64,000 bases of DNA from a virus (taxonomy: Duplodnaviria > Heunggongvirae > Uroviricota > Caudoviricetes), in IMG/VR virus record IMGVR_UViG_3300005527_003200; one strand, given 5' to 3'. Below, in pieces: positions 1,405 through 60,803 of this stretch (the first letter of the stretch is position 1; every line of letters starts with the position of its first letter). Below the pieces are notes generated by a model, which saw nothing but the letters and a program-made list of their open reading frames with translations, was not told the origin of the DNA and did not search any database. The position numbers were made by a program, and so were the translations under genes.

Positions 1405-1430
1405 AAAATGGCTACTTTCGCAGCCATTTT
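1405..1430 (-). terminator. Hairpin (AAAATGGCT-N8-AGCCATTTT) followed by TTTTCTTT on the minus strand; terminator insulating the porin promoter from upstream transcription
   Basis: A 9-bp stem and a T-rich tail on the minus strand sit immediately upstream of the -35 element. Confidence 0.5.
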
Positions 1431-1805
1431 GGTGGTTTCTGTTACGAGGTATTTCCTACCCTAGACGACCTTAAGCGGCCATCAAGAATTTTTCATCATT
1501 TGCAGATAAAAGTTTTGCTTGATTTACGGTCATCGCCTACCGTGCTGTCCACTCTGTTACTCTTTGCCCTGTCGAATCTAGGTCAGGCCCATCATAAAGA
1601 AACTTAATCTACGCTTAATGTTGTTAACAACAAGCATAATATTGGAAAAACAATTAATAAAAATTTTGCTAAATTTTCCATATTACCATAACTCACAGTT
1701 TTTTATTTTCTCTTCGTCCAATGTGGTATCACGTGTAAAATAAAATACACCAAACACTAACCAAAATAACAAAAATAAAACATAACCTATCATTAAACTT
1801 CCTTA

Positions 1806-1837
1806 TGGTGGACCTGGGGGGATTCGCACCCCCGTCC
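1806..1837 (-). other. tRNA-like 3' minihelix: T-arm (GGGGG-TGCGAAT-CCCCC) plus 7-nt acceptor 3' strand plus A plus encoded CCA. No matching 5' half was found.
   Basis: The minus strand reads GGACGGGGGTGCGAATCCCCCCAGGTCCACCA. No GGACCTG-type 5' acceptor (wobble allowed) occurs within 350 nt upstream. Confidence 0.3.
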
Positions 1838-2055
1838 AGAACACTTTTCTCTCGGCTTCATACAGCAATAACTCGCAGTATATATTTATTCTTTGGGCTT
1901 GTCAACTGCTTTGGAGATGATGTCATACACTTGTGCGTATGCATCAGTAATTTTGTCTAGTTGTTGTTCCGACACCAAGTCTGTGTCCTCCAGACTGACC
2001 AAGTCTCGGGCTAGATTTTCTTGTAGTTTTTTTATGGGATTGAGCACATACCTAT

Positions 2056-2595: not shown

Positions 2596-2681
2596 TGGTA
2601 CCAGAGACGGGACTCGAACCCGTATGCCCTTGCAAGCGGCAGATTTTAAGTCTGCTGTGTATACCATTCCACCACTCTGGC
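2596..2681 (-). tRNA. tRNA-Leu (anticodon TAA), long variable arm
   Basis: A manual cloverleaf gives GCCAGAG acceptor, anticodon loop CTTAAAA, variable arm CGCTTGCAAGGGCATAC, T-arm GGGTTCGAGTCCC and an encoded CCA. Confidence 0.85.
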
Positions 2682-2699
2682 TTTGCGTTATTTAATACA

Positions 2700-2774
2700 T
2701 GGTCCGGCGTAGAGGAATCGAACCTCTATAATGACTTTAGAAGAATCATGTCCTATCCGTTGAACGAACGCCAG
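2700..2774 (-). tRNA. tRNA-Arg (anticodon TCT)
   Basis: Manual fold: the acceptor CTGGCGT pairs with ACGCCGG, the anticodon loop is CTTCTAA, the T-arm is AGAGGTTCGATTCCTCT, and CCA is encoded. Confidence 0.8.
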
Positions 2775-2779
2775 ATGTT

Positions 2780-2854
2780 TGGTGGGCCAACTTGGAATTG
2801 AACCAAGACTCGACCGATTATGAGTCGGTTGCTTTACCATTAAGCTATTGGCCC
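2780..2854 (-). tRNA. tRNA-Met (anticodon CAT; elongator Met, initiator, or lysidine-modified tRNA-Ile not resolved)
   Basis: Manual fold gives GGGCCAA acceptor, anticodon loop CTCATAA, T-arm CTTGGTTCAATTCCAAG, and an encoded CCA. Confidence 0.8.
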
Positions 2855-43993: not shown

Positions 43994-45538
43994 TTATGTA
44001 CGACGGATTTGTTTGATTAGGTGGCGGCTTGGATCAAAGTTTTTGCTCCAAGTCAAAGTTTCTGCAACAATCTTCTCTCTTAGTTTTTTCTTTTTAGTCT
44101 TTGTGGGCAGAGTTTTTGTTTGCTTTGTAGGCAGTTTGACCTTGCGACCTGTGTATCCAGGAACCTTGCCGGCTGCTCCTGAGCCAGAGGCGTCTGCTGG
44201 AGCAGGTGCGGGTGGTCTACTAGCTCTTTTTGCTATCTCAGCATCAAGAACTGCTTTCATTTTTGGATGTAAATCTGTTCTTGCGGCAAATCTGGATAAT
44301 ACTTCATCAGGTCCTTTCTGAACATCTCTAACTAAATTAGCTATTTGAACATCACTTGGTTCATGTGCTGTCGCTCCTGGTGCTGGCGCTGGTGCTGGAG
44401 CAGGCTCTGCTGCTGTGACTCCCAGTTGATTTACAAAACTCAACAATGCTTTGGCATCTTCTACTGACAGATTGGCCAATTCAACTTGTATATCGTCCCA
44501 GCTCAATTCGCCTTGCCCTACATACTTGGTACCAGCTTGTTTGCCTTTAGCGTATGCTTGTGACATTCCAGTGAATGCACCTCTTGTGGCACCAGCAGCA
44601 GTTGAAAGCGCACGTGGTGTTGCAGCAATTGCTGAACCTGTGGTTTTTAGAGCTTGTTTGCCCATGTCGTATGCTTGGCTCATTCTGCTTTTGTTTGGTA
44701 CCACAGGTGCGACTGTAGGAGGCAAACGTTCTTCCAATGCACCAGCGGCCTTTTTAGACAATATCTGTTTGACTATTTCCAACTGCTTGGCGTCAAGAGC
44801 TTGAATGGATTGCACTAGAGGTTTGTTTTGCATCACTTGTGATGCGGCAATTTTGGCATACAACGGATCGCTTGGAGAAATCTTTTGTCCACCAATGCTG
44901 ACTGTTTCAGGCTTGCCACCAGTTGGGGTTCCTGCAATTGCTGATCCCAATGCACCGGTTGCGGGTTCTGCAGTAGGTTCTGTGCCAGCATCACCAGCAG
45001 GTGTTGATGACAGTGCTTCAAGTTCTTTGTTTAGCGCATTGCGTCTTGTTTTGTAGGCTGCATCTAAATTGCGCAGTTCTGTTTTGACTGTGTCAGCATC
45101 TCGTGTGGCTGCTGCGCCACCGCCACCGCCAGAAGCAGCAGGTGCAGGTGTTGCTGTTGCACTACCACCTGACGGCCCAGAAAAATCACTAGGCACATAG
45201 GGCTTGCCGGTACGAGGATTAATCGTATTAGATCCAATTGGCATTTCTGCTTTACCGCCGGCCTTGGCGCCAGATGTGTCACCATAGGCTGCGCCGGGCA
45301 CTGTGCTGCCAGCATCATCTTCGCCACCAATGCCTTTTACTGATCCACGATAACCTTTTTTAATTGCTCGACCCAGGCCTTGCGGAATACCTGCCACAGC
45401 GCCTGCTGTTTTACCAATGCCGCCGACAAGGCCGCCAATGCCTCGACCAACCTGGTCCAGGCTAATTTCGTCAAGCTGTTGCTCGTTGATTGTGGTAGTT
45501 GGTTTGATTAGATCAGTGTATATCATTTTAGCGTTCAT
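43994..45538 (-). CDS. Ala/Gly/Pro-rich low-complexity protein (514 aa), probable virion/internal protein
   Basis: It has a compositionally biased middle and a basic C-terminal tail. Confidence 0.55.
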   Translation of the reverse strand: MNAKMIYTDLIKPTTTINEQQLDEISLDQVGRGIGGLVGGIGKTAGAVAGIPQGLGRAIKKGYRGSVKGIGGEDDAGSTVPGAAYGDTSGAKAGGKAEMPIGSNTINPRTGKPYVPSDFSGPSGGSATATPAPAASGGGGGAAATRDADTVKTELRNLDAAYKTRRNALNKELEALSSTPAGDAGTEPTAEPATGALGSAIAGTPTGGKPETVSIGGQKISPSDPLYAKIAASQVMQNKPLVQSIQALDAKQLEIVKQILSKKAAGALEERLPPTVAPVVPNKSRMSQAYDMGKQALKTTGSAIAATPRALSTAAGATRGAFTGMSQAYAKGKQAGTKYVGQGELSWDDIQVELANLSVEDAKALLSFVNQLGVTAAEPAPAPAPAPGATAHEPSDVQIANLVRDVQKGPDEVLSRFAARTDLHPKMKAVLDAEIAKRASRPPAPAPADASGSGAAGKVPGYTGRKVKLPTKQTKTLPTKTKKKKLREKIVAETLTWSKNFDPSRHLIKQIRRT

Positions 45539-46253
45539 CCAAATAATCTTGTTGGCTTGTTTGTTGAGCCTGTTGTTTCATTGCTCTGCGTTTTTGAAAC
45601 AACTTTACTGCCATGTCAGCATGGTCTAGGTTTTTAAATTTGCTGGGCATGGATCTATTACCTTGCCGCAGTTCAAATCCATCCTTTTCGTTGCCATAAC
45701 ATTCAAAGGTAACACCATATTCCATGGCGTAACTTTTTACCGGAGCAGATGATGTTTCTGACATGTCATTGATAGGCTGTTGTGGGTTGCCTAGCTGAGT
45801 GTCTACTTTGTCCTCGATGCCATGCACTGTGCTGGGATCTGTCAACTCGTAGTCATCTTCTTCAATTTCTTCTTCGGCTTGACCTTTTTCCACAGCGTCA
45901 ACTGCTTTGTCTTTGAGTTCACGATCAACTCGAACTTTTTGTTCCAACTGATCAAGATATTGTGTAAGGTCCTTCTTGACCTTGCTCAACATATCTTCTT
46001 CAACTTCTTGCATGGCTTCTTCTAGTGCGGATTTTCTGGGCTCTACAGAATCACCCACCATGTATCCATCCATTGGATGTGCTGGATCTTTTTTGGCACG
46101 CAACGCAGGACTGGCTGATTTAGGCTTGAACAGCGCAGGCAACTGTGGCACACCTTTTTGTTGTGTGTTAAGCCCATGCTTGACGCCTACTGGCGTAAGT
46201 TTACCTTCTACCGCCGCAAGGCGTTCCAGTATTGATCTAATGTCCGAACTCAT
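45528..46253 (-). CDS. Acidic coiled-coil hypothetical protein (241 aa)
   Basis: It is operon-consistent. Confidence 0.5.
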   Translation of the reverse strand: MSSDIRSILERLAAVEGKLTPVGVKHGLNTQQKGVPQLPALFKPKSASPALRAKKDPAHPMDGYMVGDSVEPRKSALEEAMQEVEEDMLSKVKKDLTQYLDQLEQKVRVDRELKDKAVDAVEKGQAEEEIEEDDYELTDPSTVHGIEDKVDTQLGNPQQPINDMSETSSAPVKSYAMEYGVTFECYGNEKDGFELRQGNRSMPSKFKNLDHADMAVKLFQKRRAMKQQAQQTSQQDYLDER

Positions 46254-48276: not shown

Positions 48277-49146
48277 ATGACTGTAGCAAGAGTATTGTTC
48301 CTAGCAAGATATCGTGTGCCACATGCATGTTTTGCCATGCAGTGGGACCATAATTTACTGGGCATAGATTACACCATAATAGCTTCGCCAGTGCCACAGC
48401 ATGAACTATGGCCAGTGTTTGAACGCTATGGTATTGATACTTCACAGCTAAAGTACATGAATGACAGTGTGATATACCAACGCTATCCTGAAGTCAACAA
48501 CTGGGTGTTTGACCATGACTATCGGGGCTGGTGGTTGCGACAACAAGCAATCAAACTGGCCTACCGAGACCTGTTGGAAGAAGATGTCATACTCATGCAT
48601 GACTGTGACACTTTTATGATTGAACCTTATAGATGCTGGGATGGTGAACAACTGAATTATCTTGTGATACCTGACACCAAGCACGGCAGTTATCATGGGG
48701 TATTTGAAAGCATTACTGGATTGCCAGAGGCCAGCCCGCATTGTTTTGTGTCAGAGCTTGTGCCTGTACTGCGCACACACTGGCTTGAATTGCGCAAACT
48801 GCTGGCCCAACGTTGGCCCAACAAACTGTGGCTGGACGCTATTATTGACGCTGTTCCTGGCATGCCCACAATACCTCCCTGGGGCACAGGCGAAATAATC
48901 AAATGGTTTTCAGAATATGAATTGATAGGAAACTGGGCAGCATGTTGTGATCCCATCAACTACACTTTTCAGAAACGTTTTGAATACAATCAATTGGAGC
49001 TGTTGTCTACATTGAATGCCAAAGAGTTCAATGCAGTATGTGATGCTGTGCCGGACCTAAGTCAAAGCATGCAACTTGATTGGGACACATTGGACATACC
49101 TAATTTTGAACATTATCAACACATGGTGAAGCAATGTACACAATAA
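48277..49146 (+). CDS. Hypothetical protein, possible GT-A-like transferase
   Basis: An HDCD acidic motif is present. This is a weak call. Confidence 0.45.
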   Translation: MTVARVLFLARYRVPHACFAMQWDHNLLGIDYTIIASPVPQHELWPVFERYGIDTSQLKYMNDSVIYQRYPEVNNWVFDHDYRGWWLRQQAIKLAYRDLLEEDVILMHDCDTFMIEPYRCWDGEQLNYLVIPDTKHGSYHGVFESITGLPEASPHCFVSELVPVLRTHWLELRKLLAQRWPNKLWLDAIIDAVPGMPTIPPWGTGEIIKWFSEYELIGNWAACCDPINYTFQKRFEYNQLELLSTLNAKEFNAVCDAVPDLSQSMQLDWDTLDIPNFEHYQHMVKQCTQ

Positions 49147-50261
49147 CATACCCAGCAAAGTTCCGATATCCTGTGTATCAACCTGCATCACAAAGTATTG
49201 ATGTCACAGCTGATTGGGGTCTGGGCAGATTTGAAACTACCAACGATCCTGCACTGGCGCTGAGTCAACCGTGGTCTGTAGCAGCATTTCGTGTGCTGTG
49301 CAACGAGCCCGGCGTGTTTGATTATGATCCAGCACTGGCTGACATGGATCTCAGTCAGTTTGATTTGGTACTGCTGAGTGACATTGAATACTACAGTGTT
49401 AAAGAAATACGTGCCTGGATTGAAAAAAACAAAATTCAACGTTATGTGTTGGCAGTAGGCGGTCTTGTGCAAGGAGAAGAATTGGATCAATCCTGCATGG
49501 TGTATCGCCCTTGGTGGGCTTACAATCTCTTGCGACACAACGAATACCAAGACACCTACCAAGATCAAAAACCCTACATGTTTGAAGCACTGTTAGGAGC
49601 ACGTAGACCGCACCGTGACTATGTGATGATGGCCATGGACAAAACTGGGCTGTTGGATCGTAGCATTGTGACCTACAGAGATTGCTTTGAAGGCAAATTG
49701 ATTGACAGAAACTGTGATCAATTTCAGCAGACTTTTTATGACACTCCGCTAAAGTGGCCTTACGTGAGTGCAAACTTAAATCCTGCATGGGAAGTCACGG
49801 ACAACATCACTCGCAGTATCAGTCCATATGTGCCCTGGAACATCTATCAACGCAGTCATTACAGCATTGTGTGTGAAACACTGGGCACTGGCACAACATT
49901 TTTCTGGAGTGAAAAAGTTACCAAGTGTTTGTTAGCCAGAAGAATTTTTGTGTTTTTTGGCGCACAAGGATTTCTTGCTCGCATGCGCGAACTAGGGTTT
50001 GAAACATTTAGCAGTATCCTTGACGAAAGCTACGATGAACATCCTGTGGACAGCATACGATTTGAACGGGCCATGCATCAGGTATTGCAGTTGGCATATT
50101 TTGAAAATCCCAAAGTGTTGTATGAACGCATACAAGCCATACTGGATCACAACCAAGCTAGATTGCGCAGTTACCAGATTCAGTTTCAAGCCACAATGTC
50201 TGATCTACTGCATCAACACATTGAAGGTGGCCATTGGTTATGGGATGACGAAGTGGGTTGA
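49134..50261 (+). CDS. Putative glycosyltransferase, GT10-like, paralogue D
   Basis: It has the C-terminal motif YSIVCETLGTG...SEKVTKCL...IFVFFGAQG...LGFETFSSILDESYDE. Confidence 0.5.
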   Translation: MYTITYPAKFRYPVYQPASQSIDVTADWGLGRFETTNDPALALSQPWSVAAFRVLCNEPGVFDYDPALADMDLSQFDLVLLSDIEYYSVKEIRAWIEKNKIQRYVLAVGGLVQGEELDQSCMVYRPWWAYNLLRHNEYQDTYQDQKPYMFEALLGARRPHRDYVMMAMDKTGLLDRSIVTYRDCFEGKLIDRNCDQFQQTFYDTPLKWPYVSANLNPAWEVTDNITRSISPYVPWNIYQRSHYSIVCETLGTGTTFFWSEKVTKCLLARRIFVFFGAQGFLARMRELGFETFSSILDESYDEHPVDSIRFERAMHQVLQLAYFENPKVLYERIQAILDHNQARLRSYQIQFQATMSDLLHQHIEGGHWLWDDEVG

Positions 50262-51053
50262 AATGTGCTGATAGAAGTTTTCAGCAATTTTTTCCTGTCC
50301 TTCGGGACCAGAATGATATCCAGGGTCGTCTCCTGAAAATGGGTAACTGCCACATATGGCTTGAGGACTTTTAGTTGTGTCCAATTGTATGTAGTGATCA
50401 GGGATAAGTTTAGGAAACGCATCACGCCATAAGGTATGATTGTCAGGATCGAATGGCCACAGCAAGTTGGGTAGCACTAAAAACTTGATGTCATCCAAGA
50501 ACATGGTAATCACACCTTCTCGGATCATCCACTCGTCCTGTTGCTTTTTCCAAGCATTGTCATAGATTGAATCAATCCAGTGACGTATGCCGTTCTGCGC
50601 TTGTTTGGTAATGCGGCCCTGTCTGTACGGATGATCAAAGTTTTCTGCAAGAGTAAAAATAGTTTCGCAGATCATGTTTGATGGCTCCCGACCATAATTT
50701 ACATTGCGTATGCCATCTTGTCTGTTGTAGCCATTGCCCAGTTTTCTATTTTGTAGGTGTCGTTCTAGTGGAGGATTTTCCCCGGCGCTGGGTGCCTGTG
50801 ACCAATCATATGGCACAGAGTTTGCAGGTATTTCCATACGATCCCAGAAGGTAGGACCAATCACAGCAAAGTCTGGACGCTGTCTGCGTATCTCGTCTAT
50901 TTGTATACGGATGCCGCCGTTTGAACAACCTTGGCGTGCTAGGTTAACCAACTCCCAGCCACCTAGTTTTTCGGCCAAGCGTTCACTCCAAGCAGTGCCT
51001 GGCAAAGTTTGACTCACTGCCGAAAACGAGCAGCCTGCTACCATTAATTTCAT
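50238..51053 (-). CDS. SGNH/GDSL-like hydrolase paralogue 5 (GCSFS)
   Basis: It has MVAGCSFS at the N-terminus and DDPGYHSGPEGQ near the C-terminus. Confidence 0.5.
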   Translation of the reverse strand: MKLMVAGCSFSAVSQTLPGTAWSERLAEKLGGWELVNLARQGCSNGGIRIQIDEIRRQRPDFAVIGPTFWDRMEIPANSVPYDWSQAPSAGENPPLERHLQNRKLGNGYNRQDGIRNVNYGREPSNMICETIFTLAENFDHPYRQGRITKQAQNGIRHWIDSIYDNAWKKQQDEWMIREGVITMFLDDIKFLVLPNLLWPFDPDNHTLWRDAFPKLIPDHYIQLDTTKSPQAICGSYPFSGDDPGYHSGPEGQEKIAENFYQHISTHFVIP

Positions 51054-51562
51054 AGTGTTTCCTTGTAACTGTTTCGGTGTTCTTCGCTGTGAAAACTAGC
51101 AATAATTTCTTTGTGCATGGGCAATTCGTCTAAGTTGTATGTGCCAGGTGGAATTGTATGTGTAACTCCTTCACCAGGCCGTGCAAAAGTTACCAGTCTA
51201 GGATGCCACTGCACTGCACGATGTACCAGCACATGATGTATGTGTCCATAGTCTCCTAGTTCGTCATGGGTGAGCACTAGATCATAATCACGAGCAAGGT
51301 GCCAGCAGGCACGGTCGGCAGATTCTTCAGCCCAGCGTGTGAATACTTTTTGCTCGTTGTCATGCCAGTGGTCTTCAAAGCCCAAAAACACACAGTCGAT
51401 TCCCCGACGTTTCCAAAACGCCAAAAGTTCTTGGCCTCGGGGATCATGCTCAGTGTACGTTAAATAGCCAATGGTCCATTTGTGCTCAGGGTGCGCATGA
51501 ATATAACTGTAACCAAATATCACACAGTCATCTGGATGCGCTACCATACACAATGCGTTCAT
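51050..51562 (-). CDS. PIG-L / LmbE-family N-acetylglucosaminyl deacetylase
   Basis: It has the N-terminal AHPDD motif and a His-rich metal site. Confidence 0.65.
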   Translation of the reverse strand: MNALCMVAHPDDCVIFGYSYIHAHPEHKWTIGYLTYTEHDPRGQELLAFWKRRGIDCVFLGFEDHWHDNEQKVFTRWAEESADRACWHLARDYDLVLTHDELGDYGHIHHVLVHRAVQWHPRLVTFARPGEGVTHTIPPGTYNLDELPMHKEIIASFHSEEHRNSYKETL

Positions 51563-52404
51563 TCAAGTTCCCAAGCAGCAAAATGGCCGCGATCAATCAA
51601 CAACATCTTAAATGCAGTTTTTTGTTCTGGTAACATTTTTGACCAAGCATTTCGATGAATACTCACTGTGAGAGCATTTTTATCACGCATGAGTTCAAGT
51701 TTCTTATCAAACTGGTCAACTTCGCTATGACAAACATTTACCACACCGCCAAGTGTGTTTTGTTTGGTATAAAAATGATCCAAATGTCCATACTTGTATT
51801 GACAAAATCCTGAGTACAACATGAATTCTGTCAGCATGCCTTGGCGCTGAAACCATGTGGGAAAACTTTCATGTGTTTTGATTGTGGTATCAGCAATCAT
51901 AAAGCGTACAGTGTCATTGTGGAAGAAAAATGGCACACCGCCAGGGCCAGCTTGTTTGGTCATGTTGATGTCAAACAGCTGATCCACAATGTTCTTACTG
52001 GGTTTAAAAACATCAAATATATCCAATTGTCCCACAGTAAGCTGACCTTGTTCGTTAACCAATTTGGATATTTCCAAGGGTCTAACAAATATAGTCTTGG
52101 CGTCTAATACCATGGTGTAGACATTGTAACTTATAGACGCGGTGAGAAGTTTTAGAATCTGCTGGCTTACCCAGCCGTTTGCTATCCAAGCACTGCTGAA
52201 TGCTGTGCGCGGCACTACCAAGACAGAGCTTGCTAGATCACCCCACCATGCTGGATCAATTTTTTCCGCTAGGGTTTCGTAATCATTGAGCACCACATAG
52301 ATATTTCTTATGCCTATGTTGCGACAATAATTGTTTATGCTTTGTGCCTGAATTTTAAGGATCGGCAGTTCCTGTTCAAATACTACTGTGCAGATATCAA
52401 TCAT
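51559..52404 (-). CDS. Hypothetical protein (281 aa)
   Basis: It shares an ATGA overlap with the deacetylase. Confidence 0.5.
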   Translation of the reverse strand: MIDICTVVFEQELPILKIQAQSINNYCRNIGIRNIYVVLNDYETLAEKIDPAWWGDLASSVLVVPRTAFSSAWIANGWVSQQILKLLTASISYNVYTMVLDAKTIFVRPLEISKLVNEQGQLTVGQLDIFDVFKPSKNIVDQLFDINMTKQAGPGGVPFFFHNDTVRFMIADTTIKTHESFPTWFQRQGMLTEFMLYSGFCQYKYGHLDHFYTKQNTLGGVVNVCHSEVDQFDKKLELMRDKNALTVSIHRNAWSKMLPEQKTAFKMLLIDRGHFAAWELE

Positions 52405-52437: not shown

Positions 52438-52794
52438 TTATTTTCCTGCTGCAAACAGTGCGGCACCGCGATTGAAACTGTCGCTCCAACTTGCAGGTTG
52501 TCGGCCACCGCGCTTTTGACTCCAGGCATATCCTGCTCTGTGACCAGAACAGTCTTTGGTGCATTGTGAACCTAGAAAACTTAATTCACGCAGTTGCTCG
52601 CGGGTCCACTTGTCTGGAATTGTGCCGTGTTTTTTCACAAACTCGTCGTGCAGTTGTTTGCCAGTAATGCCGTAGTCACGAGCAATGGTTTGCATCATGT
52701 GATCAATTGCGCTGTAGCTCTTGGGATCATCTAGATCTTTTTCCAAATCTTCTACAGCGCCTTCTTTCAACTGTGCAAACTCGTATGCTCTCAT
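52438..52794 (-). CDS. Hypothetical protein (118 aa)
   Basis: It is operon-consistent. Confidence 0.5.
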   Translation of the reverse strand: MRAYEFAQLKEGAVEDLEKDLDDPKSYSAIDHMMQTIARDYGITGKQLHDEFVKKHGTIPDKWTREQLRELSFLGSQCTKDCSGHRAGYAWSQKRGGRQPASWSDSFNRGAALFAAGK

Positions 52795-54626
52795 TTTTTA
52801 GGTTGCACCGCTGTGGGCATGTTGCGATACACACGCTTTTGGGGATCATACACAGTTTTAAGTGGGCCCAAGCCAGCCAGTTTCTTTACTCTAGCAATCA
52901 TGTCTTGATAATCATCACCGTAGTCGGCTTCTTTTTCTTTGGGAGTTGATTTGCTTTCGTCAGCCTTTTTAGGCAAGTCTGCATAGTCCTGCTTGCGATC
53001 AGCACCGTGGAACTCTTGAGCAACGTCTTGGCTGATGCCAACTTTTTTTGCAAATTCAGGATTGTGTGCGGCTGCTGCCATGGTGCGGAATTGTGCTTGG
53101 CTGGTTGACTTTTCATTCAAGTCACCTTCTTGCATGTTCTTTAATAGTTCTTTTGCTTTTTCAACACTAACCATTGGTCTTGGGTGCTTGCCGTCTATTA
53201 CACTTTGTAAATATTCTTTGCTAAAGCCTTTTGGTGCTTCTGCAGCCGGTTTATTATCAGCAGGTGATGTCATTGTTGCACTTGGCTTGAATCCGCCAGT
53301 GAAACCGCCTTGGCCATCAGGAGTAACTCTAGCATTGGCACCACCTGCGCCCAGTGCCATTGCACCTGCCAATGCCGCGCCACCTAATTTTTCTTTCCAG
53401 CCTTCGTCAAGATCACCTTCCGCTACACCTTGTTCTCTTACACTACTGCGGAAATGTCTGGCATCATTTGCATCGTGTTTGCCGCGTTCTAATCCTTTGG
53501 CCCATTCGTCATTTTTACGGGCTTCTCTTGTGGCACTATATGGATTGTCTCTGATGGTCATACCTTGTTTGTATGCTCGACGACCCAGTTCGTATGCTAC
53601 GCCAACACCTGCTAGTTCATACTCTTCCGCCATGCCTTTCTTCTTCAATGCTTCCTTATTTCTCACCCAGCCTTTGCCACCGCATTCTGGGCACTCATCA
53701 TCGTGTGTATCTATTCCAGTGCCATCGCAAGAACCACATTCATGCTTTTCACCAGTGTTACCGTAAGCATCTGACTCCGAGCCTTCCGCCATGCCTTGTC
53801 CTAGATTGGCTATGTAACCATCAGGGCCAGTCCATTGATCTTTATAGTCTTGCCATTCTTTTAGACCCCAAGCTATAGGAAACTGATGCCAAGCCCACAT
53901 TCCGTGGGTATTAAACTCGCTAGAAAATTCCTGTATGTCAGCCTGTGTAATGCCTGAGGTATTGGATTGTTTGGCGACCTCAATCAACCAGTGCGCCATA
54001 GTTTCGCCACCGTCGTCAAGATTACCTACTTTTTCTAATTTATTAAACCTATCTACACCTTGCCTTTCAAAGTTGCGGCAAATTTTTTCAAGCCAATTTA
54101 TAAATTCCTGGCCCCATTTGGCCAATGCTGTTTCTGGGTCGCTGCCTGTTCTTGCAGTGAGAGACTTATTCAAACTATCTACACTTTGCCTAGCAGTAGC
54201 ACCACCTGTGATCTGACCCATCATTGAGTCAAACTTTTGATCGCCAGTTGCTTCCGCCACACCTTGCTTCTTGTTTAACTCTTTGTTTAGAATCTTTTCA
54301 GCATCCTTGGCTACTTTTTTAGCAGTGGTTGCTTTAGCAGTGTATTCTTTTTTGCCGCCTTCATCGTTACTACCATCACGCCCTGGAGGTGTTTGTGATT
54401 TGTCCATTTCCATCACACCTTCAGACTTGTTGCCATAATTGCCAGCGCCTTTTTTGCGACACTGAACCAAGCGTCCAGATGCATAGGCTGATGGCCATAC
54501 TTTTGCTGACGCTTTTACTTTGTAGTAGCAGGCGTCTTTCTTTTCCATCATCAGCATTTCACTGAACATGGGACCACCACAGTGTGGGCATGACTGTGAG
54601 GCTTCAAATAAGTCGTCTATAATCAT
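52791..54626 (-). CDS. Large hypothetical protein (611 aa) with a DnaJ-type CxxCxGxG zinc-finger pair, probable virion/internal protein
   Basis: It carries HECGSCDGTG...ECPECGGKG and an N-terminal CPHCGG motif. A Gly/Ala-rich segment is present. Confidence 0.55.
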   Translation of the reverse strand: MIIDDLFEASQSCPHCGGPMFSEMLMMEKKDACYYKVKASAKVWPSAYASGRLVQCRKKGAGNYGNKSEGVMEMDKSQTPPGRDGSNDEGGKKEYTAKATTAKKVAKDAEKILNKELNKKQGVAEATGDQKFDSMMGQITGGATARQSVDSLNKSLTARTGSDPETALAKWGQEFINWLEKICRNFERQGVDRFNKLEKVGNLDDGGETMAHWLIEVAKQSNTSGITQADIQEFSSEFNTHGMWAWHQFPIAWGLKEWQDYKDQWTGPDGYIANLGQGMAEGSESDAYGNTGEKHECGSCDGTGIDTHDDECPECGGKGWVRNKEALKKKGMAEEYELAGVGVAYELGRRAYKQGMTIRDNPYSATREARKNDEWAKGLERGKHDANDARHFRSSVREQGVAEGDLDEGWKEKLGGAALAGAMALGAGGANARVTPDGQGGFTGGFKPSATMTSPADNKPAAEAPKGFSKEYLQSVIDGKHPRPMVSVEKAKELLKNMQEGDLNEKSTSQAQFRTMAAAAHNPEFAKKVGISQDVAQEFHGADRKQDYADLPKKADESKSTPKEKEADYGDDYQDMIARVKKLAGLGPLKTVYDPQKRVYRNMPTAVQPKK

Positions 54627-54976
54627 TTCTTTTTAGTGGCCACGTTGATGGCCTTTCCTGTGCGGTTGGGGTTGGGATCTTGTCTGCGTTTTCTTGCGGC
54701 TGCTGACGCACGACCTTTTTTGCCCAGGGCATGTGCTTTGGCTTGCGGCAAACACTTGGGCTTGCCTTCTTTTGAACTGCCTCTAGCACAATCACCACGG
54801 ATCTTGCCGTCGGGCCCAAAGCGTACCCACTTGTCTTTGAACCAATCACGGAGATTTTCTTCCAACTCGGTTTCGCTCACAGGCACACAATTGGGCACCT
54901 GACGACCACCTTTGTTTTTCATGCCTGCTTGGCGATAACCAGTCCAGCAGGCTTCAAGAATTTCTTTATATCTCAT
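54623..54976 (-). CDS. Basic hypothetical protein (117 aa)
   Basis: It is Lys/Arg-rich and shares an ATGA overlap with its neighbour. Confidence 0.5.
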   Translation of the reverse strand: MRYKEILEACWTGYRQAGMKNKGGRQVPNCVPVSETELEENLRDWFKDKWVRFGPDGKIRGDCARGSSKEGKPKCLPQAKAHALGKKGRASAAARKRRQDPNPNRTGKAINVATKKK

Positions 54977-54982
54977 GATGGG

Positions 54983-57900
54983 TTATTTATTGCGTTTGGC
55001 TCGAGCCCGTCCAGCCTTCATGTTGGCCATCCAGTGTGCCAATTGTCCTTTGCGACCGCCTTGTTTGGCCACTTTACGCAGGGTGCTTACTGATGCTTTG
55101 GTGGGCACGCCGTGTCGCTTTGAATCGCCTTTGTCTTGGGGATTCCGACCGTCAGCAAAGTTTTCACCTACGTTGTATGTGGGATCAGTTTTTTGACGCT
55201 TGATGCCAGCAGGTTGATTGGGATCTACAGGATCAATGTCAGTGGTGGTTAACCCTAGTTTTTCCAACTGCTTGATGTATTCATGTTCAAGATCTTCGTC
55301 GCCAAAACTCACAATAGTACTGGGTGGTCCTTTGCCAAAATCGTCAGTGTTATCTCTGTCTAAGTTAGCAATGTTCTTGCCCAACTTGTACCAGTCATAC
55401 ATGTCTGACACATCCACTCGCACAGTGCCCGCTGGCATTGTGGGTCGGCTTTCAGGACCAGGAGGATCAAAGTTTCCGTAGCGATCCTTGCCTTCGGCTA
55501 CACCTTCTGTCATGATTGGCACAACTTCAAAGCCTTCGCCTGACACTCCCCGACCATTGTTTCGCAACCATTGAGCCGCTACACGGTTAGCATCGCCTTG
55601 ATTGTTGCCCACGCCTGAAAATCTATGAACTTCTTCACCATTGACCAACACCTTCCATGCACCAGAGAATGTGCCTGGCGTGGCTCGCTGTTGTGCCAAG
55701 GCTGCTGTGCTTCCAGGGTAGACCACCTCTATATCTGGTTCAATGTCAATGATACCACCCGATGCTGCATCTGCAGGCCGATCCCATTGTTCAGTATCCA
55801 CCACCATGTAGTCAGCAGCAACCACATTGTTTCTAGCAGCCCAGGCTTGGAGAACATATCTGCCTTGTGCCTGTTCCGCTGGATTGCCCATGTTAAATCT
55901 AAACTGATAGTCAGGTGCTGGGCCAGTAAAACTGCCATACAGGCCTGGATCCGAGCGTAGCACAATGGCATAGCGACCGTTGGGGTCATTGGGGCGGCCA
56001 CCACCTTGAGAACCTGGCGGTGCAGTAAAGGCACTAGCTGTGTCGTCGTCTTGTGTAGATTGTGCATCCAAATTATACGGACGCACAGGTTCAGCCACAA
56101 TAGATTGTCGTGTGTTGGCCCAAGACGGATAGCCATCATCCCCCAAGGCTTTTTCAATGGCTTCTTCTCGAGAGGTGGCAACAACTTCTACACTGGCATA
56201 ACTATTGCCAGGATTGGAAACGTTCCACCACATCTTTTCACCGCTTGTTTTATTACGCTCCGTCTTGCGTTGTAGTTGTGCTTGCTTGACAAAACTACGC
56301 AAGGCAGCCTTGGGAATCTTGCCAGCCACATAGTCAGCAAAGTATCGGATTGTGTCTGACCCTTTTTGATCCTGAGTCAACAGTTTGTATAGTTTCTTTT
56401 GATACTCTTCTCGATAGGCTTCAGGGTTAAGTGCTGCACTCATGGCCACTGTGAAACGCAACAGAGTGTTTTCAATCTTGTCAAAGTTGTCATCCAGCCA
56501 GTCACCACCCGGCGAACGGAATTCAATGTGTCCGCTCTTGGTGTTGATTGATGTGTACTTGTCTGTGCTGCCTGAATGGATGGCCTTGGAAGCCAGTTCA
56601 CCCATTTGACCTTTCATCTTGTCCAGCAAACGCTGTGCGTCTTCGGGGTTGGACCGCACACGATCACGCACCTTGCCTAGTGCTGATTTGGTGTAGGTAT
56701 TGGAACTGCGACCAAATTGTTTGAGCACATACTCGTCGCCCAACAGCAAGGCCAGTTTTACATAGTCCAAACGATCTAAACTGTAGTCAGGCACTGATAT
56801 GTTGATGTGCAGGCCAGTCGAACTGTTGGTATAAACGCCCATGCGTCCAGCCCAGGCCTTCACGGCATTTAAATCTTTCAGCAGTTCATCTATGGGCATG
56901 GGCGGGCTCACAAACTCCAAGCCTTCGTCGCCGTCATTGTCGCCTTCCAAACTGGCGTCTGGTTCTACTACATAGAATTGATTGTTGGGTCCAGGTCTGT
57001 CGCCGGACTGATGATATCTTGTGTTCACTCGCACTTCACGACCCACAGCCTGACTGAATTCGTCAGCCACTTGATCTGCGTCAATCTCGCCGCTGTTCAT
57101 GCTAGTCCAGTAGGGCCAATTCATTCCATACATTTGCTCAACCTCACTCATTCTGTCAAGGTCTGTGGCGTCTAACCAGTCGCTTTCGTCATAATTTTCT
57201 TGGAATTCTTCCCGCCATTCATCAAAGGCTTCATTGTAGTAAGTACTCGAAGGATCAGCGTCTACATTGGCTGCAAATTCATCAAATGCTTCGTTTCGTT
57301 CATCACCAGTTAACTCGTTAGGATTCCATTCATCTTCATTTACATTATTCCGAAGCCAGTCACGAATGTAATCTTGGCTTTCACCGCCCCAGTCATCGCG
57401 AAGTTTTTCATCCAGCCATTCCTGGAAATCGTCCTGCATTCTTTCACGCAGGCGTTCAACATCTCTACGGCCGTTGTAGTCGCCATCATGAAAGAATCGC
57501 ACAGCATCATCAATGCTAACACAGCGTTCATCCTGATCATAGTCTGGTTCCATTTCAGGATCTTCGGATTCCATACCAGGCACAATCATTTCAAATTCCA
57601 TGCCAGCAATGGCACCTGTTTTGGCAGCTTCCCTGCGCAAATTTTTGCTGCCCATGTTTATTTCAAACAGGTCTTGTTCTTCAAACAGTTCAAATTCTTG
57701 TGCTAGACTTTCTGCTAACTTTACCTTGCCATCTGCTCGCAACAGTTGTGGATGGCCTTGCGAATCAGTGGCCAGTCGCATCTTGTTGGCTTCTGTGCCA
57801 GTTTGTCCTGGATGCACATCCACACTCAGTGCCATTTCAAATCGAGGATCGTTGCGTTCGGCCCAGGTGGGAATGTATCCAGATGACTCACGAATGTCTT

Positions 57901-59152
57901 CATGGTCAAACAGTTCTGGGTGTGCATCAGCAAAGTCTCGCATGATAATGCCAGCCACAGCGTTTGCTTCGTTCTCCACAGGAGAGCCTGTGTTGCCAGA
58001 TGTGTGATCCAATTGTTCTAATTCCTGTTGGCGGCAGTGTGCCAGTTCGTGTGCCACAGTGCGAAGAATATCCATCACATGTCGATCGCGCAGATTCACA
58101 TGCAAAACATGCAGCTCTGGTTGGTACATGCCAAATGAACGATTTTGTTCACTCCATCCGTCATTGTCATGTAGTACAATTTCAGGCATGCGTTCAATGC
58201 CCAAGCGTTCAGCAGTGTCTTGAATAAACTGTTGCACCATGCTCTCAGTGTCATCTTCATTCAAGAACATTTGTGTGCTGGCAGCAACACCATCTTCTGA
58301 ACTGTAGGGTTGTCCTTGATGGCCTTCGCGCATGCTTTCGCCACCACCACCGTCACCACCTTCGCCTGATTCTCCTCCGTAGCCAAATCCAGGAGACCAA
58401 TAGCTGCCAAATCCATAACGCACTCGGGATTTCTTTTTTCGGCGTTCTTGTAGACTCAGCTCGTGATCTTGTGCGGCTGTTCTAGCTGTGCGCAAATCCT
58501 TGATGCAACCTTTGTTACGCAGGATTTTGAACACAATGTTTTCACACCCAAACTCGCCGTGAGCATCCAAGCCACTTTGGCGCATGGCCTTGATCTTGTC
58601 CCACAGTCTGCTCATGGATTCAGCGTTGCCAGATTCAATTGCTGAATGTATTCTAGCATCCAAATCTTCGACCTTGGCTCGCACACAGGTGTCGTCAATT
58701 CTGGCACGTTTTCTGCGTGGCACTTGAATCCATTCGTCACGTGGGATAGAATACTCACCTTGACTCACAGGAGACTCGGCTGCATTTTGCACATACAGTT
58801 CCACAGGCACGCCGCCGATGCTCAACTTGTGTTCATCGTTATATTGGTATTTTTTGGCATTGAACAGTTCCTGATAAACTTCGTCGTCAGCAGGAAACTC
58901 CACCACAAGGTGTAGATCAATGTCGGAATATGGGGTATAGCTGTAGGCAGCATTACTGCCTGAGATGGTTATGTCACGGACGTCAAGGTCACCTACGCCA
59001 AGAAATTCGCGAAAATTGTCAGCAATGGCCAACAGCTTTTCGCGTACTTCGGGTAACAATTGCTCGTCCCTGCCCCAGATTTTAGGGTTGAGACGATTGT
59101 GAAACTTTACAGCATCACTCAGCTTGAAGGAATCCAGTTCGTTGATGTTCAT
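54983..59152 (-). CDS. Giant multidomain protein (1389 aa): minimal nucleotidyltransferase (GS...D.D) plus HExxH...E zinc-metallopeptidase; candidate injected polyvalent protein
   Basis: It has ITISGSNAAYSYTPYSDIDLHL (the Pol-beta-type NTase signature) and VAHELAHCRQ followed by ENE (gluzincin-like). A Gly-rich linker and a basic C-terminus are present. Confidence 0.6.
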   Translation of the reverse strand: MNINELDSFKLSDAVKFHNRLNPKIWGRDEQLLPEVREKLLAIADNFREFLGVGDLDVRDITISGSNAAYSYTPYSDIDLHLVVEFPADDEVYQELFNAKKYQYNDEHKLSIGGVPVELYVQNAAESPVSQGEYSIPRDEWIQVPRRKRARIDDTCVRAKVEDLDARIHSAIESGNAESMSRLWDKIKAMRQSGLDAHGEFGCENIVFKILRNKGCIKDLRTARTAAQDHELSLQERRKKKSRVRYGFGSYWSPGFGYGGESGEGGDGGGGESMREGHQGQPYSSEDGVAASTQMFLNEDDTESMVQQFIQDTAERLGIERMPEIVLHDNDGWSEQNRSFGMYQPELHVLHVNLRDRHVMDILRTVAHELAHCRQQELEQLDHTSGNTGSPVENEANAVAGIIMRDFADAHPELFDHEDIRESSGYIPTWAERNDPRFEMALSVDVHPGQTGTEANKMRLATDSQGHPQLLRADGKVKLAESLAQEFELFEEQDLFEINMGSKNLRREAAKTGAIAGMEFEMIVPGMESEDPEMEPDYDQDERCVSIDDAVRFFHDGDYNGRRDVERLRERMQDDFQEWLDEKLRDDWGGESQDYIRDWLRNNVNEDEWNPNELTGDERNEAFDEFAANVDADPSSTYYNEAFDEWREEFQENYDESDWLDATDLDRMSEVEQMYGMNWPYWTSMNSGEIDADQVADEFSQAVGREVRVNTRYHQSGDRPGPNNQFYVVEPDASLEGDNDGDEGLEFVSPPMPIDELLKDLNAVKAWAGRMGVYTNSSTGLHINISVPDYSLDRLDYVKLALLLGDEYVLKQFGRSSNTYTKSALGKVRDRVRSNPEDAQRLLDKMKGQMGELASKAIHSGSTDKYTSINTKSGHIEFRSPGGDWLDDNFDKIENTLLRFTVAMSAALNPEAYREEYQKKLYKLLTQDQKGSDTIRYFADYVAGKIPKAALRSFVKQAQLQRKTERNKTSGEKMWWNVSNPGNSYASVEVVATSREEAIEKALGDDGYPSWANTRQSIVAEPVRPYNLDAQSTQDDDTASAFTAPPGSQGGGRPNDPNGRYAIVLRSDPGLYGSFTGPAPDYQFRFNMGNPAEQAQGRYVLQAWAARNNVVAADYMVVDTEQWDRPADAASGGIIDIEPDIEVVYPGSTAALAQQRATPGTFSGAWKVLVNGEEVHRFSGVGNNQGDANRVAAQWLRNNGRGVSGEGFEVVPIMTEGVAEGKDRYGNFDPPGPESRPTMPAGTVRVDVSDMYDWYKLGKNIANLDRDNTDDFGKGPPSTIVSFGDEDLEHEYIKQLEKLGLTTTDIDPVDPNQPAGIKRQKTDPTYNVGENFADGRNPQDKGDSKRHGVPTKASVSTLRKVAKQGGRKGQLAHWMANMKAGRARAKRNK

Positions 59153-59169
59153 ACGAACTGTATTTACCG

Positions 59170-60030
59170 TTACTTGGCTGTAGCTGGTTCTTCCACGGGC
59201 ACAACATCCACAGGGGTGCTGGATGCCATGATTTCAGGCTCAGTTATATCAACTGGTTGCTTGGCTGCATCATGTGCATTGGCAATCTTAGGAGCAGCAA
59301 TAGCATGCAAGTCTTGGTACAACTTGTCCTGTGTTTGCGCATCAAACACATAGGTGCCCACGTGTTTCAACAACACACGTTTGTCGATATACACTTTGCC
59401 GCCTAGATCACGCCAGTTTTCGCAGAATGTCCAGTCTTCTGAATAGTAGCGGTTTTCACGCACAGCAGTGTCAAAGTAGGTTTTCATGTACTTGTCCAGC
59501 GCAGGATCTAGACCAATGTCATTGTTGAAATGACGCACAGCAGGGTGTGCATTCAGTTTGTCAAACACATCTTTCTTGATCAACAAGAATCCTGTGCCAG
59601 TCTTGGTAACTTCTACCAAGTTGTCCACGCCTTCTTCTTGACCTGGAATGCCATTCACACACCATTTAACTGGCAGTGATTTCATGGGATACAATCCACC
59701 AATCACATCCACTTGGCGATTTAGCAACACCAACAAATGCCAGGGTTCCCAGCCAATGTCCGCGTCAATAAACATCAAGTGTGTTGAACCTTCTGTATTC
59801 AAAAACTTTGCAGTCAGAGTGTTTCTAGCACGACTAATCAAACTTTCATTAGTCATGGTTTCTACAGTCCAATCAATGCCTAGTTGTCGGCAGGTATTGC
59901 CCCATTTGATAAAACTCATGAATGTTGCTTCTGTCAGCTGGCCCCCATAACAGGGCATACAGATGTGAACACGAGTGGTTTTTAGATATTCAAGGTCGAC
60001 TTGAATTTGAACTTGTTGTGGCTCTGCCAT
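59170..60030 (-). CDS. GT-A-fold glycosyltransferase-like protein
   Basis: It has an N-terminal Rossmann-like ICMPCYGG and a FIDAD acidic motif. Confidence 0.45.
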   Translation of the reverse strand: MAEPQQVQIQVDLEYLKTTRVHICMPCYGGQLTEATFMSFIKWGNTCRQLGIDWTVETMTNESLISRARNTLTAKFLNTEGSTHLMFIDADIGWEPWHLLVLLNRQVDVIGGLYPMKSLPVKWCVNGIPGQEEGVDNLVEVTKTGTGFLLIKKDVFDKLNAHPAVRHFNNDIGLDPALDKYMKTYFDTAVRENRYYSEDWTFCENWRDLGGKVYIDKRVLLKHVGTYVFDAQTQDKLYQDLHAIAAPKIANAHDAAKQPVDITEPEIMASSTPVDVVPVEEPATAK

Positions 60031-60086: not shown

Positions 60087-60803
60087 TTACGACCTAGACT
60101 CTTCCATGTAGTCAATAACGGGCTGATTTTCTCTAGCTTGATAGCCTGCCTTCATGCCACCCACACTCAGTTGATTCTCGCTGGTAAATGTCGCGGCCCA
60201 GCCTTGATTCTCAGCCACAGTACCAATGGCAGTGTCCAACAGTTTGACAACATTAGCAGCCAATTTGGGATTCTTTTGTGTTGCTGGATACAAGCTCATC
60301 ACAAGAGCTGTTTTGCGTTTTTCGTTTAGTGTGGGCCATGCGCCACGAATCTCTGTGGCCGACGTCATGCCTGGACCAAACTCCACTGTGGGTAGGTAGG
60401 CCATGTAGGCATGTTTTGCAAATGGCTCTAATCGCTTTGCACCTATCAGTGGTTGCAAGTATGCAGGATTGCCATCTTTCTTTATGCCGCCTGCTTGTGG
60501 AGGTTTGTTGGCGTCTTTATCAGAACGCACAAAAATTAATGTGTCTGTAGCAGGGTTAAATTGCGCAGTAATTTCTTCAGCACGAAACGGTGATTTGACC
60601 TGCACAAAATGTCCAGCATCTACTCCAGCCAGCTTGGCCAACTTTTCTTTTACTGCAAATGGAAATGGTCTAGCTGAGGTATCGTTTGTGGCCGCAACAA
60701 AAACTTCAGCATCAGGGAATGCCCGTTGTGCGGATTGATAAAGTGCTAGGTGCCCTGCATGGAAAGGATGAAATCCCCCGGGCATGATTACTACAGTGCT
60801 CAT
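60087..60803 (-). CDS. HxGH-motif nucleotidyltransferase (cytidylyltransferase-like; NMNAT/NadM-type is possible)
   Basis: It has an N-terminal IMPGGFHPFHAGH motif. Confidence 0.6.
   Translation of the reverse strand: MSTVVIMPGGFHPFHAGHLALYQSAQRAFPDAEVFVAATNDTSARPFPFAVKEKLAKLAGVDAGHFVQVKSPFRAEEITAQFNPATDTLIFVRSDKDANKPPQAGGIKKDGNPAYLQPLIGAKRLEPFAKHAYMAYLPTVEFGPGMTSATEIRGAWPTLNEKRKTALVMSLYPATQKNPKLAANVVKLLDTAIGTVAENQGWAATFTSENQLSVGGMKAGYQARENQPVIDYMEESRS

Follow-up and report, generated by a model that had tools for sequence, protein, structure and literature searches.

On the minus strand of a 64,000-nt stretch of tailed-phage DNA (IMG/VR record IMGVR_UViG_3300005527_003200), one gene at 54983–59152 encodes, from an ATG start, a protein of 1389 amino acids (aa) in which a nucleotidyltransferase, a zincin metallopeptidase, an amidoligase and several smaller modules follow one another, and three genes that begin with leaders of the phage T4 type lie directly downstream. 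We refer to the whole 64,000-nt stretch as the window, and all positions given without a locus name are positions in it; the protein's own features and the three downstream genes are all on the minus strand. Here, we describe that the three enzyme domains have intact catalytic residues, that the modules of this candidate polyvalent polyprotein occur fused or separate across a large family, that leaders in the adjoining gene array resemble the capsid-targeting sequence of T4, and that short motifs of the kind cut by T4-type prohead proteases are placed at the joints between domains. The identical 1389-aa protein is found on 26 contigs, the longest of 364,404 bp. A misassembled or chimeric reading frame was ruled out, because the identical protein recurs across many independent assemblies.

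The protein opens with a disordered leader (aa 1–20, MNINE/LDSF..., the slash marking the position after Glu; 59093–59152), for which the AlphaFold model has a predicted local distance difference test (pLDDT) score below 50 over aa 1–18. The I-x-E at residues 3–5 of this leader is conserved in the family, with M1 and E5 invariant and I3 present in at least 90% of a 40-sequence alignment. Residues 21–240 (58433–59092) form a nucleotidyltransferase of the Pol-beta superfamily. Its signature, G65-S66 followed by D77-I-D79, is completed by E118 as the third acidic residue, and G65, S66, D77, D79 and E118 are invariant in alignments of 40 and of 66 sequences, as are the zincin residues H368, E369, H372 and E393. 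The Pfam family NTP_transf_2 (PF01909) is reached marginally, with 21.3 bits against a cutoff of 21 for the isolated domain and 17.8 bits for the whole protein, and three of five family members match when scanned as isolated domains; the region also matches phrog_36119 (E = 3e-44). The original prediction had described this domain as minimal. It is indeed of the Pol-beta type, but with about 240 aa and a four-helix C-terminal half behind the nucleotidyltransferase core (pLDDT 60–90) it is not minimal.

Foldseek places CdnE, AadA, AAD(9) and LinB at the top of its matches to this domain (best E 6e-3, identity 10–17%), and there are weak sequence signals to SidM_N and DrrA; a five-sequence profile searched against Protein Data Bank (PDB) sequences gave 2rff (E = 0.09) and DrrA (E = 0.3) as its best, none of them significant. 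The domain could nucleotidylate proteins, given the weak DrrA/SidM signals, or small molecules. Stand-alone homologues of about 230–265 aa, with 33–39% identity, occur in cyanomyoviruses, Maribacter phages, Lak phages and a 635-kb uncultured phage, and G65, D77, D79 and E118 are invariant across these as well. The homologue of Prevotella phage Lak-B5 (locus L009, 2501–3208) contains five in-frame stops under translation table 11. Lak megaphages recode stop codons, which would explain these stops.

A Gly-rich, acidic linker (aa 241–300; 58253–58432; pLDDT 27–39), with 15 Gly in aa 241–280 and M-R-E/G at aa 274, leads into a minimal gluzincin-type zincin metallopeptidase at aa 301–419 (57896–58252). 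H368-E-L-A-H372 lies about 300 residues beyond the nucleotidyltransferase signature and is followed by E393-N-E395. The model is confident (pLDDT 77–93) and consists of one helix, three strands, the HExxH helix and a second helix that carries E393, which is the zincin fold with the Glu ligand on the helix after HExxH, as in gluzincins. None of the peptidase sequence families M78, DUF6782 and eCIS_core reaches its Pfam cutoff; Peptidase_M78 (IrrE-like), for example, scores 13.3 bits against 22. The two domain calls of the original prediction, which it had left to profile searches, therefore came through marginally, the nucleotidyltransferase by a fraction of a bit and the zincin by its fold, with no peptidase sequence family behind the latter; the reading frame, the signature, HELAH, ENE, the Gly-rich linker and the basic C-terminus that it had read from the gene are all present, and the catalytic motifs are conserved. 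The zincin may process the 1389-aa protein or attack host targets.

Behind the zincin follows a module of the form SGYIP...DVxPGxxGxEANK (aa 420–482; 57707–57895), without a match in Pfam or PHROG, which is bounded by I-R-E/S (aa 420–423) and L-A-E/S (aa 479–482); the motif at aa 420 is conserved in 39 of 39 sequences. The largest and best supported domain is one that the original prediction had missed, a glutamine-synthetase-like Amidoligase_2 at aa 483–965 (56258–57706; PF12224, E = 3e-8, 34.1 bits against a cutoff of 22; pLDDT 80–95). Its ExE, ExD, E, HxN and ExR motifs are represented by the invariant residues E519, E521, E730, D732, E746, H782, N784, E877 and R879, and the domain is predicted to form amide bonds with ATP. 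Top Foldseek matches are glutamine synthetases, at a weak E of 0.07, and a 500-aa protein of Agrobacterium phage Atu_ph07, encoded two genes from the portal gene, is 31% identical to the domain (E = 4e-29). Inserted into the amidoligase is an acidic helical segment of 164 residues with a net charge of −38 (aa 527–690; 57083–57574; helices mostly with pLDDT >90). This insert is rich in Trp, Tyr and Phe and is a candidate nucleic-acid mimic or docking surface.

The C-terminal part contains three beta-beta-alpha-beta domains (aa 974–1025, 1061–1123 and 1166–1212; 55508–56257; pLDDT 75–87) with disordered spacers, in the last of which W1166, N1183, Q1185, A1188, N1189 and W1195 are invariant. These domains are of about 45–60 aa, and relatives P0054 and P0073 carry many more tandem copies than the three seen here; it looks like an undescribed repeat domain. 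Next come the junction M-T-E/G-V-A-E/G (aa 1213–1221; 55490–55516), which has low pLDDT, contains motifs conserved in 25 of 31 and 24 of 24 sequences and is a site of module insertion in relatives, and a mobile module GPES...VDVSDMYDWYKLG (aa 1220–1330; 55163–55495) without a family match, which in 17 relatives stands directly after the zincin region instead of near the C-terminus. The protein ends in an ENFADG linker and a basic helical tail (aa 1331–1389; 54986–55162), whose 59 residues have a net charge of +13 and an isoelectric point (pI) of 11.9. The same linker and tail terminate stand-alone, leader-bearing GNAT and NUDIX genes of relatives. Searched in isolation, the C-terminal modules gave no Pfam or PHROG families.

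How are the domains joined? T4 prohead protease cuts after Glu at a three-residue motif, for example at ITE-6 and LTE-619 in Alt, and the prohead proteases of phiKZ and SPN3US likewise cut after Glu at a three-residue motif (PMC5694885). The corresponding pattern [LIVMF]-x-E-[GSA] occurs exactly five times in the 1389-aa protein, at aa 274, 420, 479, 1214 and 1218, and is family-conserved at these positions. All five lie between domains, in 10-residue blocks with pLDDT ≤60. By shuffling, 4.1 occurrences would be expected in the 929 folded residues, where there are none (P = 0.01), and 1.7 in the 460 linker residues, where there are five (P = 0.026).

Directly downstream of the gene lie three consecutive genes with comparable motifs at their very start: a 117-aa basic protein (54623–54976; leader MRYKEILE/A; pI 10.2, net charge +17), which had been noticed originally for its charge and is a candidate internal head protein; a 611-aa multi-module protein (52791–54626; leader MIIDDLFE/A) with QGVAE/G-type joints and one zinc-knuckle pair; and a 118-aa protein (52438–52794; leader MRAYEFAQLKE/G). 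Among the 75 candidate genes of the window, no complete gene other than these three has [LIVMF]-x-E-[GSA] within its first 16 residues; a fourth such early motif belongs to a ClpB reading frame truncated at the window edge. In four syntenic relatives the genes come in one order (DnaJ, ClpB, several small genes, polyvalent gene, array), and the array genes begin with MRAQEFVAE/A, MRFLEFVAE/A, MRAQEITE/N, MRGKEFIDE/S, MRASEF... or MIIQDLFE/S. A leader is present in 15 of 23 array genes of these relatives against 2 of 64 flanking genes (Fisher's P = 2e-9, for patterns defined after seeing the data).

MRAQEFVAE/A and MRFLEFVAE/A closely match the T4 capsid-targeting sequence MKTYQEFIAE, whose first ten residues suffice for encapsidation and whose propeptide is removed by gp21 (PMC9026906, PMC5694885). 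In the T4 leader, positions 4 and 7 are important for targeting, positions 8 and 10 for processing, and Asp at position 10 blocks cleavage and not targeting (PMC9026906); one relative carries MRAREFVAD there. Leaders of about ten residues that resemble MKTYQEFIAE and end in hydrophobic-x-Glu are thus borne by the neighbours and by the stand-alone cassettes described below, and only loosely by the 1389-aa protein itself, whose start MNINE/L, like MHITE/L in a relative, has a looser resemblance to the MELITE/L of T4 Alt.

The 611-aa protein had been described as having DnaJ-type zinc fingers. It does have two CxxCxGxG motifs (CGSCDGTG at 297 and CPECGGKG at 312), but it does not belong to the DnaJ family: Pfam DnaJ_CXXCXGXG scores 20.6 bits against a cutoff of 32.7, and the protein has two repeats where four are required. 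Over a 50-aa module it matches PHROGs 22033 and 25121, both annotated 'virion structural protein', and its module at aa 29–75 is up to 93% identical in cyanomyoviruses. Its QGVAEG joint is followed, at aa ~410–430, by a stretch of hydrophobic, Gly/Ala-rich sequence, GGAALAGAMALGAGGA, which has a counterpart in front of the LysM-GH19 module of relative P0014 and might insert into a membrane or act as a signal anchor.

Two mini-modules make up the 117-aa protein, and both have matches, in another order, in a single gene of cyanophage P-SSM5 (E = 7e-15 and 5e-11), which is flanked by the tail sheath stabilizer gene on one side and a gp16-like gene on the other. A protein of cyanophage S-SCSM1 with these modules is annotated 'virion protein' and is encoded a few genes upstream of the large terminase gene; the virion proteome of S-SCSM1 has been measured by mass spectrometry (PMC9602691). 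The mini-modules are basic and Cys-containing, with the consensus forms CWxGYxxxGMKxKGxxxVPNCV and KDACYxKVKxxxxVWPSAYASGxLVxCRKxGAxNxG, and occur in the first two array genes (54623–54976 and 52791–54626) and in loci L011 and L012. They are shared, shuffled, with a gene in several hundred cyanomyovirus records, with up to 93% identity over about 45 aa despite the distant lineages. A BLASTP comparison of the polyprotein's basic tail with the cyanophage modular protein was not significant.

The family to which the 1389-aa protein belongs is large and modular. More than 1648 homologues were scored. Over the aligned region, the 120 listed among them are 50–84% identical to the 1389-aa protein, and some come from contigs of up to 365 kb. 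With aa 1–1000 as the query, an exhaustive HMMER search returned 7241 representatives at 50% identity, 1943 of them at E ≤1e-30. Relatives add cytidine/dCMP-deaminase (PF00383), GH19 with LysM, M23, GNAT, NUDIX, ParB or M48 modules, and the insertions fall at a few fixed joints: NL[RQ]E/[GS], VE/SLRQEF, GVAE/G, MVE/G and ENFADG. Some family proteins consist of nucleotidyltransferase, zincin and SGYIP module only and end at the LAE joint or with a basic tail. Many proteins that contain the part from the amidoligase onward start with MR[AFY]xE[FILV]... directly before LFEINMSP, at the place of the joint LAE/SLAQEFELFEEQDLFEINMG in the 1389-aa protein, where the residues AQEF look like an internalised leader, to judge from this correspondence. 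Similarly, the stand-alone protein P0226 starts with MRFKEVKKVLKEFGGYVP..., a leader followed by GGYVP, which corresponds to the joint IRE/SSGYIP. Array genes of relatives provide the same picture from the other side: a 198-aa gene product (leader, ENFADG, GNAT-like module, ENFADG, basic tail) is 80% identical to aa 1518–1705 of P0009, a 183-aa NUDIX protein is 63% identical to aa 1711–1885 of P0073, tail included, and a 280-aa GH19 protein matches the C-terminus of P0014. The modules thus exist both in fused form and as single genes with leaders, and polyprotein and array share one cassette pool.

Cluster-based counts for this protein need care because of a clustering artefact: its 90% cluster in the database has as its representative a 298-aa protein that in reality comes from the upstream 286-aa gene (59170–60030, minus strand). 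We considered the 286-aa 'members' of the cluster as nucleotidyltransferase fragments and rejected this, as they are the product of that upstream gene. An NCBIfam scan of the 1389-aa protein gave no matches, and a whole-protein phmmer search of PDB sequences nothing significant.

The source genome is, as far as its genes tell, that of a T4-related huge phage. The window encodes a T4-type family-B DNA polymerase. Among cultured phages, the polymerases nearest to it are those of Sinorhizobium phage Phosso (51% identity) and Agrobacterium phage Atu_ph07 (47%); other jumbo phages of about 350–380 kb, such as CBB and GAP32, come next. Atu_ph07 is a group 2.2 jumbo phage (Iyer et al, 2021; PMC7824862). 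A near-identity DNA search of a phage collection gave no match. At 1428–1909 (minus strand) lies a permuted transfer-messenger RNA (tmRNA; Rfam tmRNA_permuted 115 bits, alpha_tmRNA 57 bits) with the tag ANDEKFLMAA, and adjoining it are genes for tRNA-Leu, tRNA-Arg and tRNA-Met (2596–2854, minus strand). An alphaproteobacterial host is hinted at, because the tmRNA is of the alphaproteobacterial type and the relatives of the DNA polymerase come from phages that infect Sinorhizobium and Agrobacterium.

Elsewhere in the window, two more conserved genes are candidates for bearing leaders (45528–46253 and 43994–45538, both minus strand), with hydrophobic-x-E-G near residue 14–17, MSSDIRSILERLAAVEGK. 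They are near the DNA polymerase gene and a ferritin-like gene seen in related loci, and their relatives (L013, 18045–20881; L014, 22548–24078) read ...LATVEGR, ...LALIEGK and MIINDLYNNKKTAVAEG. Two genes upstream of the polyprotein, at 60087–60803 (minus strand), a 238-aa HxGH cytidylyltransferase-like (NMNAT-like) protein is encoded. Some relatives have a longer version of 383–474 aa, and virion proteomes of cyanophages have repeatedly been found to contain NMNAT-like proteins (PMC9602691). A conserved block after the array (49134–52404 and in relatives) contains DUF6492, a PIG-L-type deacetylase, other candidate sugar-modifying enzymes and a weak radical SAM match, which suggests a glycan or surface-modification module.

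What could such a protein do for the phage? We propose that it is a polyprotein in which internal-protein cassettes are strung together, and that it is packaged, cut and ejected, a reading to which we assign a probability of roughly 55%, with packaging, cleavage, ejection and substrates as its inferred parts. Packaging is favoured by the T4-type leaders on the adjoining genes and by the fusion and fission of the cassettes. The 1389-aa protein and the three leader-bearing proteins downstream would enter the prohead core through their N-terminal leaders, which resemble capsid-targeting sequences. There, a prohead protease of the T4 gp21 type (S77), the protein's own zincin, or both would cut at the disordered hydrophobic-x-Glu/small-residue joints, and set free the nucleotidyltransferase, the zincin, the ligase, which would form amide bonds with ATP, and a number of small domains. 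The cargo would stay associated with DNA through the basic tail at the C-terminus. Ejected with the genome, the pieces would act on host proteins or small molecules as soon as infection begins, through nucleotidylation, amidation and proteolysis. Group 2.2 jumbo phages carry gp21 orthologues (PMC7824862), and the protease of Atu_ph07 was confirmed as Peptidase_S77, so that an S77 protease is expected from the lineage.

A number of observations weigh against this proposal. Portal, capsid and terminase genes are absent to a distance of about 10 kb in all five loci, so that the linkage to head, packaging or morphogenesis genes that marks the polyvalent class is replaced here by linkage to the leader-bearing array; the neighbours are ClpB, DnaJ and sugar-modifying enzymes, with the DNA polymerase further on. 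An S77 protease was not found by tblastn in the window or the fetched loci, and among the 120 S77 matches listed none could be tied to this genome. Scans for the T4 late-promoter motif TATAAATA, sigma-70 promoters and terminators were at chance level and uninformative about the timing of expression. The leader patterns were chosen post hoc, and for the start of the polyprotein itself, MNINEL, the match to the T4 leader is loose. The motif at which cleavage would occur is short; across 40 family members, folded-aligned regions contain 65 occurrences where 135 were expected, a depletion of only about two-fold, which is modest support because the sequences are related. Stand-alone nucleotidyltransferase homologues of cyanomyoviruses sit among replication genes, the fold matches of the nucleotidyltransferase and the ligase are weak (E >1e-3), and the profile search of PDB sequences returned nothing significant.

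Part of this can be read as a multi-enzyme of the host cytoplasm that is never packaged and serves host takeover after infection or the modification of DNA, envelope or virion, with MRxxEF starts and joints as mere cassettes of recombination or translation initiation. The surroundings would suit such an enzyme, as chaperones and sugar or nucleotide enzymes (PIG-L, DUF6492, the cytidylyltransferase-like protein and the weak radical SAM match) are its neighbours and virion genes are not; its nucleotidyltransferase homologues stand alone in replication-gene regions, and stand-alone Amidoligase_2 proteins of LUZ24-like and OM43 phages belong to early or metabolic modules adjoining GATase. We nonetheless regard it as rather unlikely, since the peptidoglycan hydrolases fused in relatives (GH19 with LysM, M23) make little sense on a purely cytoplasmic enzyme, the leader matches an experimentally defined T4 targeting peptide down to the cleavage position, the joint motifs are confined to disordered linkers, and modules of the neighbouring proteins belong to a cyanophage protein annotated as a virion protein.

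Packaging and ejection might also take place with cleavage by the protein's own zincin only, or without any cleavage, as for the N4 virion RNA polymerase, in which case hydrophobic-x-Glu would have arisen incidentally from linkers that are flexible and acidic. In favour of this, the zincin is invariant and intact, no S77 protease is linked to this genome, zincins of polyvalent proteins have been proposed to process the polypeptide of which they are part, and some polyvalent proteins travel uncut (PMC5512222); however, stand-alone cassettes begin exactly at the joints with T4-like leaders ending in Glu, and the lineage is T4-related, which makes this variant improbable in our view. Least probable, we consider, is a structural component of the virion, such as a scaffold for a tail or baseplate lysin or a decoration of the head, in place of an ejected effector. 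GH19, LysM or M23 in some relatives and the PHROG matches of the 611-aa neighbour would be in line with it, but the three enzymes of the core are soluble and have intact active sites, the linkers are long and disordered, the Pfam, PHROG and Foldseek searches found no tail, fibre or capsid fold or family, and the 1389-aa protein itself is without any lysin.

If our proposal of a packaged and processed polyprotein is correct, it would link the computationally defined polyvalent proteins with the experimentally defined capsid-targeting and prohead-protease system of T4, and provide a concrete rule, open to testing, for the loading, cutting and diversification of such proteins. Leaders together with hydrophobic-x-Glu joints could then be used as a signature to predict the ejected proteome of uncultivated huge phages, thousands of nucleotidyltransferase–zincin–amide-ligase proteins would become candidate early host-takeover or counter-defence enzymes, and the leaders could serve as packaging tags for cargo delivery in phages of bacteria other than E. 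coli. Going further, and more tentatively, since we hold the following to be somewhat short of an even chance, a very large, uncultivated clade of T4-related huge phages may build its injected arsenal from interchangeable, leader-tagged and often basic-tailed cassettes, whose leaders become prohead-protease joints upon fusion, and the core trio may be a new host-modifying chemistry delivered at DNA entry. Polyvalent proteins and T4 targeting sequences are each already known; the literature that we searched did not contain the nucleotidyltransferase–zincin–amidoligase core, the scale of the family or the description of polyvalent proteins as concatenated leader-tagged cassettes.

The individual domains have known counterparts. 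A nucleotidyltransferase core followed by a helical bundle is also the arrangement of AadA/ANT(3''), AAD(9), LinB, CdnE and DrrA/SidM, all of them weak matches to the present domain. Among minimal zincins, projannalysin (a minigluzincin), Wss1/SprT and the C-terminal domain of ArdC were compared, and the zincin matches are only 9–15% identical. Stand-alone Amidoligase_2 proteins of LUZ24-like, phiEco32 and OM43 phages and of Atu_ph07 (AUZ94978.1) belong to the same Pfam family and share the acidic, His and Arg motifs; they are separate genes that usually adjoin a class-II glutamine amidotransferase, whereas the amidoligase described here is fused, has the 164-aa acidic insert and has no GATase gene nearby.

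As a whole, the protein resembles the polyvalent proteins (Iyer et al, 2017; PMC5512222), exemplified by proteins like the N4 virion RNA polymerase and P1 DdrB, the class to which the original prediction had assigned it. Like these, it is a large multi-domain phage polypeptide, with the nucleotidyltransferase, zincin, amidoligase and at least four further modules, otherwise unrelated, in 1389 aa, and its family shuffles lysozyme-like, GNAT, ParB and NUDIX-type accessory modules around a constant zincin hub; the zincin is the most common hub domain of polyvalent proteins and has been proposed to process them, and injection with the DNA is predicted for the class (PMC5512222). The assignment thus stands on the variable architectures and the hub and fails on the linkage to head or packaging genes: unlike the class, the gene has no portal or terminase gene within about 10 kb, and MuF is not among the Pfam matches. 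Its joints and neighbours carry T4-type leaders, which have not been described for polyvalent proteins, and PMC5512222 makes no mention of amidoligases in them.

Giant phages that pack many proteins cut after Glu, sometimes at several sites, are known in phiKZ and SPN3US, whose ejection proteins are processed by S80 prohead proteases (PMC5694885). These phages differ in belonging to the group 1 nucleus-forming lineage, in an A/S/G-x-E motif and in that no nucleotidyltransferase–zincin–ligase protein has been reported from them. The T4 internal proteins IPI–III and Alt differ in turn, as the cassettes described here, known from sequence, are also fused into polypeptides of 1300–2000 aa and their cargo enzymes are unrelated to Alt or IPI. 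With T4 they have in common leaders of similar sequence, the variable arrays of small and often basic proteins, and the hydrophobic-x-Glu motif, after which T4 cleaves and after which the 1389-aa protein and its neighbours would be cleaved as well.

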